From Ignavibacteriota bacterium (GTDB lineage Bacteria > Bacteroidota > Ignavibacteria > UBA10030), in the NCBI GenBank assembly GCA_963701295.1, contig OY969585.1:480001-544000 (forward strand): a stretch of DNA of 64,000 nucleotides. Direction: 5' to 3'. Within the stretch, counting starts at the first letter, position 1, and every line of letters starts with the position of its first letter. The notes beneath the pieces are model-generated. The model was not told where the DNA came from. It did no database searches and was given only the letters and a program-made list of their open reading frames with translations. Positions 49,142 through 56,774 of this stretch are shown one piece after another. Made by a program: the position numbers and the translations under genes.

Positions 49142-49214
49142 GCCCCTATCGTCTAGAGGCCTAGGACACGGGCTTTTCAAGCCTGGAACACGAGTTCGAA
49201 TCTCGTTGGGGGCA
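49142..49214 (+). tRNA. tRNA-Glu(TTC)
   Basis: GCCCCTA/TGGGGGC acceptor stem, CGGGC-TTTTCAA-GCCTG anticodon arm, GTTCGAATC. Confidence 0.95.
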
Positions 49215-49243
49215 CAAGGGTTTTAGCATTTTCCTCTCCTAAT

Positions 49244-49266
49244 TGCTAACACTTCTGCTAACACTT
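49244..49266 (+). repeat. Tandem 11-bp direct repeat, putative integrase arm-type sites
   Basis: TGCTAACACTT-C-TGCTAACACTT between tRNA-Glu and the integrase start. Confidence 0.7.
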
Positions 49267-49283: not shown

Positions 49284-50363
49284 ATGGCTTCCTTGATTAA
49301 ACGTTCTAACGGTATCTACTATTTCATTACTCAATTCAATGGTGTGCGTCGTTGGATTAGTACGGGTGAGAAAACTCGTGAGAAAGCTCTCAAGAGAATC
49401 CCTTCCCTCAGCTTCGAACACAGACACAAAAACAAAATTCCCAATCTTTCTGACTACATAGAGCAATTTCTCAGCATCGGATGCAATAGCTATCGAGAAG
49501 GAACGAAAGAAATTTATGAAAGAGCAATGTATTCCTTTCTCGATTGCGTGGGTAATAAAAAGCTCTCTCTCATTAGCATAAAAGATATTGATAAGTACAG
49601 ACAAGCAAAGCTTCAAATTATTCTCCCTACTACTATGAATATTTATCTTCGAACTCTCAAATCCGCATTTAATAAAGCAGTTCAATGGGAGCTCTTGCAG
49701 CATAATCCTTTTTCAAGACTACCACTCTGTCCTGTTCCTCAACGAGCTCCACAGTTCTTCACTCTCGATCATTTTAAAGCATTGACAAAAACGATCAAGG
49801 AACCATGGCTGTTGCAGGCCATCCATCTTGCAGTCTTTACCGGAATGCGAAGATCCGAGATAGTAAATTTGCAATGGAAGCATATTGATTTTTCAAGGGA
49901 GTTAATTATTGTCGAATCGGATGCAAATTTTCAAACAAAGACCGGAAAACGACGGCTTCTTCCGATGAACTCTATAGTATTTCAAATGCTACGGTCTATG
50001 TTTATCACAAGAACAGGAGAATATGTCATTATGTTGAATGGAAAGAAGTTGCGAGACATTTGGCTTTCAAGGAGATTTAAACAATACATCTGCAAAATGA
50101 ATATTGACATTTCCATGCATTTTCACATTCTTCGTCACACTTTCGGCAGTTGGCTAGCACAGGCCGGAGTGCCTATATACGAAATACAAGCACTTATGGG
50201 TCATTCAAACATAAGGGTTACAATGTCGTATAGCCACTTAATACCGAAACAATTGAGAGCGAGCGTTGAGATGCTTGTACCGTTTGATCAATTAATTCAT
50301 AACGGACAACCCTGCGAGGACATTGATCCTCGCAAGACTTCTTCGCAAGCCATCGTTTTCTAG
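49284..50363 (+). CDS. Tyrosine recombinase/integrase 1
   Basis: TGMRRSE, KTG, HILRH, MGHS, catalytic Y (MSYSH). Confidence 0.95.
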   Translation: MASLIKRSNGIYYFITQFNGVRRWISTGEKTREKALKRIPSLSFEHRHKNKIPNLSDYIEQFLSIGCNSYREGTKEIYERAMYSFLDCVGNKKLSLISIKDIDKYRQAKLQIILPTTMNIYLRTLKSAFNKAVQWELLQHNPFSRLPLCPVPQRAPQFFTLDHFKALTKTIKEPWLLQAIHLAVFTGMRRSEIVNLQWKHIDFSRELIIVESDANFQTKTGKRRLLPMNSIVFQMLRSMFITRTGEYVIMLNGKKLRDIWLSRRFKQYICKMNIDISMHFHILRHTFGSWLAQAGVPIYEIQALMGHSNIRVTMSYSHLIPKQLRASVEMLVPFDQLIHNGQPCEDIDPRKTSSQAIVF

Positions 50364-51314
50364 GTGGCAATAGATTTCGGTAGTGCTCAAATTTTTATGG
50401 CCCAGTAGCTTTTGAACTTCATAGATGGGGGTTTGTGCTTGTGTAAGCCAAGAAGCACAGGTATCTCTGAGATTATGAAAATGATAATGTTCTGACAAAC
50501 CACTTTTGTGGACATATTGTTTAAAAACTCTTGTGATATAATGAGGTTTCAGTGCTTTTTCCTCTTTATTGACAAACACATATCCCTCTGTTTTCCTCAG
50601 CGTAAGTAGCATTTTTTTGATAAATGGATGCATCGGTATTGTTCGGGGATGCATACCTTTTACACGAAACGTACCTCTATTACGTATTCGGATCAGAGAA
50701 TTTTGAAAATCTAGATCTTCCCACATTAAATTACAAATTTCACCTCTTCTCATACCTTCATGAACTGCGATTATAATAATATTTCGGAATTGAATATCAT
50801 TTACGCTATCCAATAATGTTTTAAAGTCTGTTTTTGTAAAATATGTTGGCTCCTTATCAGGGACTGGTATTTCCTTGCAGCGCTGGGCGGGATTATCTGA
50901 TACTAATCTCCAGTTCACTCCCAAATTAAATGCTGCCTGAATAGTGCGAAGATAAATATTAACTGTCACAGGCTTCACATCTGCTAAACATTTTTGTTTA
51001 AACTTTTCGATTAACAAGGGCGTCACTCCAATTAACGCTATATCTCCCAGGGCATGGATTAATTTATCAAAGCTCCGTTGATAGATCGATAGAGTACCAG
51101 AAGATAAATTTGTCGATACATATTGACAGACCAATTTTTGAAAGGCACTTAAGGTCATAAGTTTTGGTCTTTCAAGACTACTCGAGATAGTTTCGGCGAT
51201 TCTTTTGGCTTCTTCTTGATCCCGGGAACGTGTAGAACGCCATCTACGATTTCCTTCAAAATCGTAAAATGCAATATAAAAGATCCCATTATTCCGTTTA
51301 AAGAGAGAAGCCAT
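50292..51314 (-). CDS. Tyrosine recombinase/integrase 2
   Basis: GMRRGE, VKG, HNLR, LGHK, catalytic Y (EIYCH). Confidence 0.95.
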   Translation of the reverse strand: MASLFKRNNGIFYIAFYDFEGNRRWRSTRSRDQEEAKRIAETISSSLERPKLMTLSAFQKLVCQYVSTNLSSGTLSIYQRSFDKLIHALGDIALIGVTPLLIEKFKQKCLADVKPVTVNIYLRTIQAAFNLGVNWRLVSDNPAQRCKEIPVPDKEPTYFTKTDFKTLLDSVNDIQFRNIIIIAVHEGMRRGEICNLMWEDLDFQNSLIRIRNRGTFRVKGMHPRTIPMHPFIKKMLLTLRKTEGYVFVNKEEKALKPHYITRVFKQYVHKSGLSEHYHFHNLRDTCASWLTQAQTPIYEVQKLLGHKNLSTTEIYCHLENDGLRRSLARINVLAGLSVMN

Positions 51315-51386
51315 TGCTTTTATCTAACCTTTACAATTACCCAACTTCATAACACTCTATTTTTGAAATTATGTGCATACGCTTAA

Positions 51387-52142
51387 TCATTTCTTTTTAG
51401 GGAAATGTTTATTTAAATATTCCTCATCATTTTCAAACAACGATGCATTAATTTCTGCTCTTCGATTTATTTGATCAAACTCTTCATCAGAGATGCCTAT
51501 CATTTGTGCTATGGAATAATTCAGTCTTTCCGATTCACTTTTAAAAACCCTTGGCGATTTGACCGAACCAGTAGGTGCTTGAATTGATGTAGGATCACTA
51601 CTCCCTATTCCATATTGTTTTTTTAACCTCTGAAATTCGGAATGAAAACCTAATTCCCAAGCTGGTCCCGAAATCATAACGCTTGCTGGTGAAGAAGGTT
51701 TAGGTTTGCGTGTGCTATTATATACCAGCCTATGGCAATCTCTGCATCCCAGCGTTTGCTCGCCCGGAGGCAGATAAAGAATACTCACTGTTTGGTTGCA
51801 AGTATTACCGTTTTCCCTCTCAAAAGGACAAGTTAGATAGAGACGTTCACCTCCACGCGATAATTTAGAAGGATAGGTCAATATTGAATAATCAAATTCA
51901 TCAGTTTTTGGACTGTTTCCAGAATAAGCCGGATACGTTACATCGATATAAAACCTCCCTTGCCAATCCACAGTTGTTCTCCCCCAAATACATATTCTAC
52001 CTACTTCACGATCTGTAGGAGGGTTCGTTATTTGAGTGATTTCACCAATATTTTCAGAAAATAAACCTGAGTCACAGAGTTCTCTAATGTTCAGCGTCCA
52101 GCAATCTTCAACTCTAAATTTTGAATCATATTTTCCAGTCAT
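51387..52142 (-). CDS. Hypothetical protein with C4 zinc-finger motif
   Basis: CPF....C...V.ILYL....GCRDCHRLVYNS; AGGAGG upstream. Confidence 0.75.
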   Translation of the reverse strand: MTGKYDSKFRVEDCWTLNIRELCDSGLFSENIGEITQITNPPTDREVGRICIWGRTTVDWQGRFYIDVTYPAYSGNSPKTDEFDYSILTYPSKLSRGGERLYLTCPFERENGNTCNQTVSILYLPPGEQTLGCRDCHRLVYNSTRKPKPSSPASVMISGPAWELGFHSEFQRLKKQYGIGSSDPTSIQAPTGSVKSPRVFKSESERLNYSIAQMIGISDEEFDQINRRAEINASLFENDEEYLNKHFPKKK

Positions 52143-52194: not shown

Positions 52195-52746
52195 TTACTC
52201 TAAGAGCAAATTAGACTCAGAATTGTTCGTTTCCCCTGGTCTGGTTTCAGATATAACCGCTGACTGGGTCGAGTCTGTTTCTTCAGACTGTTTACCAGAT
52301 TCCCTCCATTCACTTTCCACACGTTTTTTCACTTCTTGCAGATCCGTCAAATTTTGCCTGCAAAAATCAATGTGGCAGAGAATGAACTGCTTTGGAGTTA
52401 TACCTACTACTTTTGCGATCGATCCTAAATTGCCAGGCCAGTACATTCTATTTCGTCGATCCTCTGGTCTCTGGGATATAAGCCATTGACTTATAATTGG
52501 GAACAATGTGAAATCACTAGCATCTAATGAATAATCGCGATAATGTAATTTTAGTTTAGATTTCTCCATGTCAATTCGAAATAGATTTTCAAGCGTCGAT
52601 AGTTTCAAGAGTCGAATTTTATGTCTTTTTTTCATCCTTTTTTTGGCCGCTGGTTTAACCGAAATGGCATCTCCTGATTCCTTGAAAATTTCCAATAATT
52701 GCACATTACTCATTTTATTCTCCTCTGTTTTTTCTATTGGTCTCAT
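52195..52746 (-). CDS. Hypothetical protein, possible HTH
   Basis: 183-aa ORF; LGSIAKVVGITPKQF resembles a helix-turn-helix. Confidence 0.6.
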   Translation of the reverse strand: MRPIEKTEENKMSNVQLLEIFKESGDAISVKPAAKKRMKKRHKIRLLKLSTLENLFRIDMEKSKLKLHYRDYSLDASDFTLFPIISQWLISQRPEDRRNRMYWPGNLGSIAKVVGITPKQFILCHIDFCRQNLTDLQEVKKRVESEWRESGKQSEETDSTQSAVISETRPGETNNSESNLLLE

Positions 52747-52966: not shown

Positions 52967-53503
52967 TTATTTTACTGAACAAAACTCATGTTTTAATACA
53001 TCGGACTTTCTTTTTGCTAGCCTTAGAGCAAGCTTCATGTATTTATCTGACTCACAATTATTAGGACATATGTATTTAATTTCTCGATCTTGAGTAATTT
53101 CAGCCAAACACTGCATATAAATTTTAATTTCTGGATCGTTCCCTTGACCATTTTTCTTCCACCCACAATTATTTCTCCAGTACTTGCAATTTGCCAGATA
53201 TTCCTTGATATCATGATCGGGACAAATAACGATTATCGGTATGCTATAGTCAGTAATCGAACTCATAGCATGCGAACATGCTTCTAAAAGTGCTTTTTCT
53301 CGAGATCCATTAAATATGTACCCAGAATTATTCAATTCCCTGTCAATTCCTACAATTACTAATCCCCATACCCATATATATTTTCCATTTTGTATGTTTT
53401 TTCTCAAGGCTGAAAGATAAATCATCTTTTTAAAAGGTCGATTTTCCTCGTTATAATTTTTAGTTTCTTTCAATTTTATAATCACTTTAATCCCCCTCCC
53501 CAT
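52967..53503 (-). CDS. RNase HI-fold protein lacking catalytic carboxylates
   Basis: Colinear by eye with E. coli RNase HI, including the W(R/K)..GWK basic protrusion; D10/E48/D70/D134 positions are S/L/P/L. Confidence 0.65.
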   Translation of the reverse strand: MGRGIKVIIKLKETKNYNEENRPFKKMIYLSALRKNIQNGKYIWVWGLVIVGIDRELNNSGYIFNGSREKALLEACSHAMSSITDYSIPIIVICPDHDIKEYLANCKYWRNNCGWKKNGQGNDPEIKIYMQCLAEITQDREIKYICPNNCESDKYMKLALRLAKRKSDVLKHEFCSVK

Positions 53504-53609
53504 TTTATCTAGTACAACACAAGTTTAATTTGATTTTTTTAATTCAGTATATTGTTGTTTGATTTGTCATTATTACTTCAGGTACAACAGTGTATACATG
53601 CAAACATCT

Positions 53610-54038
53610 TCGCACTTCGTGCGATTGCGAACACCTCGCAAATAACGCTCGTGTTCGCAAATTATGTATTTTTCTTCTTTCATTTTATCCTACCTTAGGG
53701 CGGATTTCAGCCAGCCCTTTTTTCTCAAGGGCTATTTTTCTATTAAACTCAAATTGTTACGTCTTATGAAAAGAAGTTATGAGCTTCTCTCTAGTTTTAT
53801 CCTACCTCAGGTATGGATTCTTTACCACATAGATCAAACTCTTTTAAGAAGATTGAATAGGCCGGGGTGCCCGTCTGCCTATGCGGATAACTTTCATATG
53901 TGAATTTATCCATTTTATGTGGTCCCAGTCCCGGTCTATAAACGACCCAGGAAGCACCGCTGGCTACTACTTGGATTTCCTTTTCAGGAAGAGCAATCCG
54001 TTAGAATCTTTTCGACATCGACATTGAGTTATTTTTTT
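53610..54038 (+). ncRNA. Candidate large structured non-coding RNA (or structured ssDNA element)
   Basis: Nested long-range stems and about 10 local hairpins in a relatively GC-richer patch, followed by a T7 tract; strand inferred from G-U pairs. Confidence 0.5.
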
Positions 54039-54301
54039 CATTTAATTGCAATCTTATTTTGTTTAACATTTTCTGTTATTGTTGTCAATTTATAAAAGCT
54101 ATATATAATGTTGATGAACATATTTTGTTCTTCTATACTATATATAGCCTTGAACAAAATTTTAGCAACTGAAATGAGTGTAAAAAGAGACGCCCATATA
54201 GGAACTTCCTATATGGAAAATCGAAGGAAAAATCAGTTTATGAAGAGATGGTTTGGTAGAAAAAACAATTCAGAACAATATAATGAACGACACCTCAATG
54301 A

Positions 54302-54937
54302 TCAGTCAGACAAGATTTCTACTTCTCCCGAAATAAAATCATCCAGCTTTATTTCCCTCTGACCTGAATTCTCAGTGTAAACTAAAGTCGGAACAACAAT
54401 CACTATTTTCATAGGTTTGATACAGAGCTTCCTCCTGAATATTCTATTTTTCGCACCTAATCTTTTATCTTTCCTAAACGCTGTAACTAGGTTCATTAGA
54501 TTCAAGAAATCTCTTATTTTTTTGTCAGATAGTGAATTGTCATTTTCAAGAATATTAATCTGACCATGTCTGAGTAATGCATAACACAGTGCTACTCGCA
54601 ACAATTGGTTCCACATTTCATTAGTGATTTTATCTGATAGACTATATCGCCATTTAGCCTGCTCATTATATTTTTTATCTATTTCAACATGTTCGAAACC
54701 CTCTGATGGCGCATCTCTATTATAAATCCATCGACTACGCATTTTATCAATAAGGGTACTAATATCATCGTATGAGCACTTATGCTTGACAAGCCTGTCA
54801 TTCATTTTTTCCATAATATCACTTGCAAAGATTCCTTTTTTTCTAATTTTCATATTTAGTTTATCTTCAACAAGGATTGCTAATAACTGCAAGGCTCGAT
54901 ATTCCATCTCTAATTCTTCAGTAGCCATTTCACCCAT
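54302..54937 (-). CDS. Putative wHTH + WYL-like regulator
   Basis: N-terminal wHTH-like pattern; LVTAF...IKPMKI...LVY....REIKLDDF resembles a degenerate WYL domain. Confidence 0.5.
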   Translation of the reverse strand: MGEMATEELEMEYRALQLLAILVEDKLNMKIRKKGIFASDIMEKMNDRLVKHKCSYDDISTLIDKMRSRWIYNRDAPSEGFEHVEIDKKYNEQAKWRYSLSDKITNEMWNQLLRVALCYALLRHGQINILENDNSLSDKKIRDFLNLMNLVTAFRKDKRLGAKNRIFRRKLCIKPMKIVIVVPTLVYTENSGQREIKLDDFISGEVEILSD

Positions 54938-55613
54938 AGGTCAATTCCTTCTTTTTCTGAGTTTGTTCATTCTTGTCTGACATCAATGCAGTGATACCAG
55001 ACCCGTGTTCGTTAAACATATAGTATGAATTTGATAATAGTCAAAAATCCTTTTACAGTTACTCGTTATGGACTCGAATGGCATTTCGCACTCTCGATAC
55101 TTCCTTTAAAATCACTAAAACCATTTTGCGAGTTATGCATAAAATATCTTCTCTTTAAACTATCATCTTGAAAGTTAAGAATCAATAACGATTGCATTCA
55201 ATGACAAGTGCCACCACAATTCCCCATGTCAGAGGCCTTCAGTGCCAGATGATTTCCTGTTTCCTCTAACATTTTATCCAAAAAGTTTGGTGATCTATTT
55301 CAATCTGAAAATCACCAAATATTTGCTTAGTAAGGAGTTTATTTTAGATATATTTGTCTCATCACAGGTCCCTCTGCATACACTACAAACAATTGAAATA
55401 ACCCCAAAAATGCTCCTATTACTGCTAAGAAGATTACGAGACCTAGCCATTCCCACATCATAATTGCTAATATCAGCCCTTCAAAAACTGCCATTACAAC
55501 TAACTACACCATTGTTCCAGAAGAAGTGTCAGGTACTGCCCCCCGAATCATGGTCCAATTTGAATGTTAGTTTTTTGTTACATTCACATTATTGGAGCTA
55601 GGAGGAACAGACC

Positions 55614-55877
55614 ATGAAGAAACGATTCACGGAAGCACAGATAGCATTTGCCTTGAGACAGGCGTCATCAGGGATACCCATTGGAGAGATCACCCGAAAG
55701 ATGGGAGTCTCGGATGTGACATTCTATCGATGGAAAAAGCTCTATGCAAATTTAGAAGTATCGGAGATACGGCGCCTGAAGCAGCTGGAGGAAGATAATC
55801 GCCGATTGAAACAACTTGTGGCAGATTTGACACTCGATAAGCAAATGCTGCAGGAAGTATTATCAAAAAAGCTCTAA
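55614..55877 (+). CDS. IS3 transposase OrfA
   Basis: KRFTEAQI, GVSDVTFYRWKK, LKQLEEDN.RLK. Confidence 0.93.
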   Translation: MKKRFTEAQIAFALRQASSGIPIGEITRKMGVSDVTFYRWKKLYANLEVSEIRRLKQLEEDNRRLKQLVADLTLDKQMLQEVLSKKL

Positions 55878-55897
55878 AGCCTGCCCTTCGCCGGGAG

Positions 55898-56716
55898 TTG
55901 ATCCAGGAGGTGCAGGCAATCTATGGAGCAAGTGAACGGCGGGCTTTGAGAGTAATGAAATGGCCACGGTCAACACATCGCCAAAAAAGCGCTCGAGATC
56001 CGCAACTGCCATTACGGTTGCGCTTGCGGGAGTTAGCAGCAACACGCATAGCATACGGATATCGTCGGCTTCATGTGCTTTTAAGACGTGAAGGTTGGCA
56101 GATCAACCACAAAAGAGTGTATAGGCTATATCGTATGGAAGGCCTGTCAATACGTAAGAAAATACCTCGACGAAGAGTGGCTTGTGTAAAGCGGGAGATA
56201 CGCCCGGCGGCATTGACGAGGAATGAGTGTTGGAGTATGGACTTTGTCTCTGATCAACTATTTGACAATAGACGTCTAAGAGTGCTGGTGATCTTAGAGA
56301 ATTACACCAGGCAATGTTTAGCACTTGAAGTAAATGCAAAGATACGAGGTATCGATGTGGCAACGACGTTAGAACAAATCACACGTGAACATGGATTTCC
56401 GAAACAGATCAAGGTGGACAATGGACCGGAATTTATCTCGAAGGATTTAGATCGATGGGCGTACTGGAATCATGTTGAATTGGATTTTAGTCGTCCGGGC
56501 AGACCATCGGACAATGCACTGGTGGAAGCGTTCAACTCTCGTTTTAGACAAGAGTGTTTAAATCAGCATTGGTTCCTGTCGCTGGAAGATGCAAAAGAGA
56601 AACTTTCTGCCTGGCGAAACGAATACAATACCCAGAGGCCGCACAGCTCTTTAGGTTATAGAACACCGTTGGAAGGTAGGATGAAAACAAGCAATGCTGA
56701 AGCCTTTGCAGCATAA
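55898..56716 (+). CDS. IS3 transposase OrfB (DDE; expressed via -1 frameshift)
   Basis: YGYRR, WSMDF, VDNGPEF, VEAFN, YN..RPHSSL. Confidence 0.93.
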   Translation: MIQEVQAIYGASERRALRVMKWPRSTHRQKSARDPQLPLRLRLRELAATRIAYGYRRLHVLLRREGWQINHKRVYRLYRMEGLSIRKKIPRRRVACVKREIRPAALTRNECWSMDFVSDQLFDNRRLRVLVILENYTRQCLALEVNAKIRGIDVATTLEQITREHGFPKQIKVDNGPEFISKDLDRWAYWNHVELDFSRPGRPSDNALVEAFNSRFRQECLNQHWFLSLEDAKEKLSAWRNEYNTQRPHSSLGYRTPLEGRMKTSNAEAFAA

Positions 56717-56774
56717 AATCACAAAAAAACTTACATTGAACTTGGACCTGCGATGGGGGCAAGTACCCAATATA

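Follow-up and report, generated by a model that had tools for sequence, protein, structure and literature searches.

A candidate structured RNA upstream of an RNase H-like gene and an integrase gene in a tRNA-Glu genomic island of an Ignavibacteriota bacterium

Few systems are known in which a structured RNA controls an integrative element. The sgm-sRNA of Salmonella Genomic Island 1 (SGI1) is a conserved non-coding element of ~280 nt, overlapped by dispensable ORFs, which lies between oriT and the atypical relaxase gene mpsA and is needed in trans for transfer of the island, by a mechanism that is not known (PMC9299015). We analyzed a folded core at positions 53746-54030 of the window, the whole 64,000-nucleotide stretch of DNA studied. 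The core resembles sgm-sRNA as an apparently non-coding stretch of ~280 nt in an integrative island with genes of the tyrosine-recombinase family. Unlike at the sgm-sRNA locus, each of the two recombinases here has the look of a usual integrase of full length, and no oriT or relaxase was identified. A comparison of the core with plasmids and E. coli genomes, a set that may not include SGI1, gave no DNA match.

Other mobile elements encode leader and immunity RNAs, such as CI of phage P4 and C4 of phages P1 and P7, and plasmid rep genes have leaders controlled by antisense RNAs. The core is like these RNAs in its cloverleaf-like structure, its short repeated target sequences and its putative place as leader of a mobile-element operon. 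P4 CI and P1 C4 are processed RNAs that bring about premature termination at targets complementary to them. The core is unlike them in having no Rfam match, and no same-strand complement of its repeats was noted beyond their own hairpins. Like retron msr-msd RNAs, the core has a long-range closing stem round several hairpins, and an RNase H-like gene lies next to it. With respect to the flanking inverted repeats of retrons, closing stems exist and a branching G is not assignable; no reverse transcriptase was found in the complete genome (PF00078, 0 matches, controls positive). In a comparison with the repeat arrays that adjoin the Ssn gene of this genome, only the basal stem was alike by eye, and none of the best 30 short BLAST matches lay in that array. 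Searches of the literature other than subscription papers found no description of this element.

Island setting and make-up of the flagged stretch

The flagged stretch (53610-54038) sits 4.4 kb within a 53-kb genomic island at tRNA-Glu. The left attachment repeat (45 bp, 49171-49215, + strand) is the 3' part of the tRNA gene, and an identical copy is found 52.9 kb downstream (582074-582118 of the genome). Pairs of 9-bp direct repeats, likely integrase arm sites, stand beside both attachment sites (49244-49264 of the window and 581986-582006 of the genome); stem arms at 53626 and 53659 are one base off this 9-mer. A second, related integrase start is located next to a tRNA that has arm repeats of a similar kind (genome 2369414-2371314), where it is cut by an IS3 copy identical to that at 55532-56767 of the window. 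Beyond the window, at window-relative positions 69060-80806, the island carries large defense-like genes (1441, 475, 917 and 863 aa) with TIR-like N-termini by eye, and arsenic and thiol-redox cargo lies closer to the window.

Two convergent tyrosine integrases open the island. Integrase 1 (49284-50363, + strand) adjoins the attachment site, and integrase 2 (50292-51314, - strand) is the final gene of a minus-strand run. Read on that strand, the order is a 211-aa gene (54302-54937), the flagged region, the RNase H-like gene (52967-53503), a 183-aa gene (52195-52746), a 251-aa gene with Cys pairs (51387-52142) and integrase 2. No family was found for the 183-aa gene (0 matches in 200 genomes) or the 251-aa gene (0 matches in 85 genomes). 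The 211-aa gene belongs to a small uncharacterized family, with homologues P0003 (72%), P0004 (50%), L024 and L025, and the nearest named loci come from an Ignavibacteriaceae genome. Members of this family (54302-54937 of the window, L024:7914-8543 and L025:10001-10615) lie in variable regions with changing neighbors. Searches of Pfam, PHROG, NCBIfam, PADLOC and PDB gave nothing above noise for it, and the domain and PDB/PADLOC searches left the idea of a WYL-type regulator unsupported.

The original prediction called the gene next to the flagged stretch a dead RNase H gene. The Atlas groups its product with RNase_H clusters (0.93; 10 of the 10 named matches), and it can be aligned to a profile built from 14 RNase HI proteins with an E-value of 9e-4, a score bettered by 7 of 1000 shuffles. 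This alignment shows other residues at the first, second and fourth catalytic acids (D10, E48 and D134 in E. coli numbering) and an uncertain third, while preserving the W..GWK motif. These results weakly support this part of the claim, a protein of the RNase H fold that has lost most of its catalytic acids. The assignment drew nothing from hhalign (probability 0.4) or from structure prediction: the AlphaFold models of this protein and of the 211-aa protein were both unusable (pLDDT 39 and 41, respectively), and Foldseek returned no match for either. PDB and PADLOC searches were empty or trivial.

The flagged stretch had been proposed as a single structured unit of about 430 nt. It is instead composite, consisting of a palindrome scrap, a terminator-like hairpin and the 285-base folded core. 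Its left 50 nt derive from a palindrome of the kind associated with integrons: the 49 nt at 53611-53659 are a fragment of the interior of a long attC-like palindrome, with 83-90% identity to those of loci L002, L003 and L004. This fragment is present in four of 201 genomes of the order, including the genome analyzed here, and the other three are of the same family. The palindromes (L002:1345-1560, L003:1468-1700 and L004:495-720) form nested hairpins within a paired AAC...GTT frame and match once per genome; they extend over ~240 nt and end in a GTT core directly before a gene. The L003 palindrome directly follows an integrase of the integron type, which scores 231 bits on TIGR02249 against a cut-off of 265. 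They have no Rfam match and are much longer than the short attC-like sites of the window's own genome, in which a profile built from them found nothing further. The attC features used for comparison were the paired AAC...GTT ends and the L boxes. Unlike the L002-L004 homologues, 53611-53659 lacks these features and the outer GC-rich stem and folds into hairpins unlike theirs. Neither an integron integrase nor a cassette array lies alongside; the two integrases of the window reach 72 and 56 bits with TIGR02249. The fragment is foreign in origin. Between it and the core, the terminator scan placed an intrinsic-terminator-like hairpin with a T-tract (53713-53741, + strand) that faces into the core.

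Folding, strand and repeats of the core

All stems listed in the original prediction were found in the sequence, as was the T7 run after the closing stem (54032-54038). The minimum free energy structure of the + strand includes most of them, the region of the 53973-53999 hairpin being paired otherwise. Against dinucleotide shuffles, the full 429 nt show the better fold, with z of -3.46 on the + strand and -4.58 on the - strand (0 of 100 shuffles as good), and the fold energy was -121.7 kcal/mol on minus vs -112.2 on plus. The 53610-53660 portion (z -4.7/-4.5), together with the junction, accounts for most of this signal. The core itself (285 nt, assigned here to the minus strand) is closed by the long-range stems 53746-53752/54024-54030 and 53768-53774/54007-54013, with pair probabilities of 0.4-0.6 on + and mostly 0.7-0.9 on -. 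Alone, it reached z -2.1/-2.5, and 7 of 64 random 285-nt windows of the genome reach -2.5 (best of both strands). Inside the core, a closing stem of 8-10 bp and three hairpins form a four-way junction (53824-53923) that is predicted on both strands, as RNA (z -4.9/-3.9) and as DNA (53820-53930 with DNA parameters, z -5.6/-4.8). This inner region was picked after the fold was seen. Among random 110-nt windows of the genome, 14 of 344 reach z -3 and 2 of 344 reach -4 (best of both strands), and the 110-nt window at 53820 scored -3.9/-3.1 in this background run. Two more hairpin domains (53925-53999) are alone no better than shuffles (z -0.6/-0.2). Against the random-window background of its own genome, therefore, the junction is unusual and the whole core ordinary. 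The original prediction could not assign the element to a known RNA family, and the search gave no family either: Rfam 15 (4227 models) found only three tRNAs at gathering threshold in the window, and within 53300-54400 the best E-value was 0.14, every score being far under threshold.

The original prediction placed the RNA on the + strand, divergent from the RNase H-like gene, and counted most G-U pairs in favor of that strand. Neither claim was supported. There are 7 G-U pairs on + (3 with p ≥ 0.5) vs 6 on - (5 with p ≥ 0.5), the minus strand folds better, the promoter scan found no + promoter between 53457 and 54082, and the + terminator-like hairpin stands just before the core. In total, the scan returned 18 promoter-like sites vs 11.5 expected by chance. 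A candidate leader promoter on the minus strand (54060-54088), found by eye and not in the scan list, has a perfect -35 (54088-54083), a 17-nt spacer, a TG and a weak 3/6 -10 (54065-54060). Its -35 is in common with a strong + promoter-like site from the scan (54082-54109, 11/12), which points away from the core and is covered by a 57-bp AT-rich palindrome (54095-54151) of operator- or origin-like appearance. The 54060-54220 segment, outside the flagged coordinates, contains 110-nt windows as strongly folded (z of -4.9 to -6.0) as any part of the flagged stretch. It also holds an 11-bp hairpin, beside the overlapping divergent -35 hexamers. The terminator-like hairpin of the 211-aa gene lies at 54217-54193. 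From 54193 to 52700 the scan lists no further terminator on minus, which would leave a minus transcript free to continue across the core and into the RNase H-like gene. Judged from folding, G-U pairs and the layout of promoters and terminators, the strand leans tentatively to minus.

Two hairpins of the minus strand, 112 nt apart, carry a 17-nt repeat that occurs at only these two sites genome-wide with at most one mismatch. Copy 1 (53683-53705) stands before the start codon (ATG) of a frame of 36 codons, the codon score of which is poor. Copy 2 (53795-53818) has a 3' arm like the start region of integrase 2; the minus 3' arm of the repeat hairpin agrees with this region (51318-51330) at 11 of 13 nt, and the island holds 9 such sites.

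Conservation of the core in one relative

The minus strand of the core contains a 75-codon frame (53797-54024) interrupted by one stop at codon 8. A query with its 64 open residues had a single match, P0007, which aligns without gaps to the frame read from 54024 to 53797, at 60 of 75 positions and with the same start and stop. P0007 and P0003, the 72% homologue of the neighboring 211-aa protein, are JGI singletons whose longest contig is in each case 114,382 bp, and we infer that both lie on one contig. The two differ by radical changes, among them W to R, Y to D, G to D, I to G and D to L. Their mean BLOSUM62 score is -1.29 (1/14 positive) vs +0.09 for the neighbor gene (25/56 positive; p = 0.007), and, with a mean of -0.51 for neutral change, substitutions as radical or worse have P = 0.04. 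The substitutions between the frame and P0007 are not of the conservative kind expected of a small protein gene, and the frame is probably not a real gene. From these radical changes, the DNA rather than the protein looks conserved.

At minimum, the core frame has 19 changes in 228 nt, and the amino-acid-changing differences of the neighbor gene number 67 in 624 nt. In simulations, 60/75 needs ~10% divergence and was reached in 0.05% of runs at 20%. With the protein as proxy, nucleotide conservation of the core would be ~90% in this one relative. The quarter of the neighbor gene closest to the core is its most diverged (29/52), and this speaks against a tract recently exchanged that reached in from there. 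Selection on the nucleotides of the core would be the simplest explanation. What survives of the original candidate non-coding RNA is a core that looks conserved in one relative, as a functional RNA or DNA structure would be; its extent is ~285 nt and not 430.

Beyond P0007, no relative was recovered. The core was absent beside the L024 and L025 copies of the 211-aa family, and DNA homologues were found neither in its own genome and 60 relatives nor among plasmids, phages and E. coli genomes; in 400 genomes of the class, the matches were all short and AT-rich, and almost all of them fell beyond the core. A covariance model built from the single sequence had no match in 85 genomes of the family, 150 of the class or the individual loci examined. 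Pattern scans of viral contigs yielded 0, 33, 7 and 0 matches, all judged chance. Peptide-pattern scans found none in viral sequences, bar one chance match, none in one metagenome set and two false matches among the matches listed in another. The single DNA sequencing run examined does not cover 53214-54116. At L105:1504-1633, a 21-bp perfect stem encloses hairpins between two phage early genes and has no Rfam match. It was rejected as a relative of the core: the 20-nt word that they have in common was judged chance and arose by pattern selection.

We also asked whether the fold is retained in the relative, using back-translations of P0007 as proxy in eight tests (P from 0.03 to 0.43). On minus, 2 of 72 pairs were forced to break vs 4.9 in the null (P = 0.09), and on plus 4 of 71 (P = 0.43); with a stricter pair probability, this test gave P = 0.25 and 0.17. 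For 72 minimal back-translations, the minus distance to the window fold was 28 vs 67 for neutral mutants (P = 0.03, 418 runs), with P = 0.09 for energy; on plus, energy had P = 0.04 and distance P = 0.14. Two of the eight tests thus pass 0.05, one on each strand. The best back-translated variants hold the four-way junction and have a remodeled third hairpin. These results do no more than suggest that the fold tends to survive in the relative.

Leader of an integrase operon and alternative readings

The core is a reasonable candidate for a new structured regulatory RNA of ~285 nt, more likely on the minus strand. Our best explanation, held tentatively, is that 53746-54030 may be the 5' leader RNA, and a candidate switch, of an operon with the RNase H-like gene as its first member and integrase 2 as its last. 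Transcription would start near 54053 on the minus strand, and the leader would fold while being made. The two repeat hairpins, whose minus 3' arms resemble ribosome-entry sequences, would be opened or kept shut under the control of a protein or an antisense RNA; such an antisense RNA could run from a + promoter-like site at 53429-53457 (start ~53464) to the terminator at 53713-53741. The state of these hairpins would then set read-through into the integrase operon. The leader reading is favored by the gapless match to P0007 with its nonprotein-like changes, by the low divergence of the core, by the minus-strand retention test, by four codons that need double changes, by the better minus fold with its firmer long-range stems and by the four same-strand genes that end in integrase 2. 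It is weakened by the single relative seen through a proxy, the pass of two of eight retention tests (one per strand), the ordinary z of the core, the weak minus promoter and a junction that folds equally well as DNA. In addition, among 63 candidates the RNase H-like protein had no homologue but itself. The downstream operon may therefore be missing from the relative, and this weakens the leader role.

A rather unlikely alternative, raised in the original prediction as a single-strand DNA origin and fitted equally by the same conservation of nucleotides, is a DNA element acting as the replication or transfer origin of the excised island, with the direct repeats as protein sites, hairpins that are recognized when the DNA is single-stranded, and an opening region at the AT-rich palindrome. 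The junction on both strands and under DNA parameters, the two unique direct repeats and the presence of the palindrome agree with an origin, as do 9-mers like DnaA boxes at 53821 and 53890, each with one mismatch to the consensus. Six such one-mismatch boxes per 1 kb make a weak signal, however; the repeats are only two, and no replication protein or relaxase was identified among nearby genes.

We consider it unlikely, and slightly more so, that the 75-aa frame is a small protein gene, intact in the relative and a pseudogene here, with incidental folding. The frame is open in the relative, with start, stop and gapless length in common, and its codon score is like that of real island genes and the best of six frames. 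This score is not significant (P = 0.08, or 0.33 as best-of-six), and P0007 is a singleton and the sole match, with none for the 64-aa frame in 300 genomes of the phylum. Against a protein also stand changes at least as radical as neutral ones and an excess of double-change codons, four codons needing two changes (P = 0.01; clustering alone P = 0.11).

An independent small RNA of the + strand ending at the T7 run, or a trans-acting RNA of either strand that aids movement of the island in the manner of sgm-sRNA of SGI1, is somewhat less likely again. The T7 run after the closing stem, the + fold energy retained in the relative and a G-U pair at 53832/53915 (p = 0.93) would suit such an RNA, and its + repeats could pair with the integrase 2 start region (11/13). 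Yet no + promoter-like site precedes the core, where a + terminator-like hairpin is found, and the long-range stems are weaker on that strand.

Under a further reading, only just below the independent RNA in our estimate, the stretch is neutral intergenic DNA with chance hairpins, an attC-like scrap and a terminator, its similarity to the relative being due to recent exchange. Random windows do equal the z of the core, radical changes are also expected of neutral DNA, and the relative was detectable only thanks to its open frame. Against neutrality, conservation is higher in the core than at the amino-acid-changing sites of the neighbor gene, the nearest part of which is the most diverged. The junction also ranks among the top few percent of windows of 110 nt, and the pair of repeat hairpins is unique. 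More doubtful still, the core could be the first of a new Ignavibacteria family of ~300-nt multi-junction RNAs in a ribonucleoprotein, with the dead RNase H-fold protein as partner, that licenses excision, replication priming or transfer by the two tyrosine recombinases of the island. The lack of an RNase H-like homologue among the 63 candidates counts against so tight an RNA-protein pair. A CRISPR-repeat decoy or an antisense to a host gene was rejected, as there was no match elsewhere in the genome.

If the leader reading is true, a conserved four-way-junction RNA from a little-studied phylum, with a dead RNase H-like protein and an integrase encoded behind it, would be a new motif with a testable partner among the RNAs of integrative elements. 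The case also illustrates that a spurious ORF of a gene-caller can expose a conserved non-coding element.
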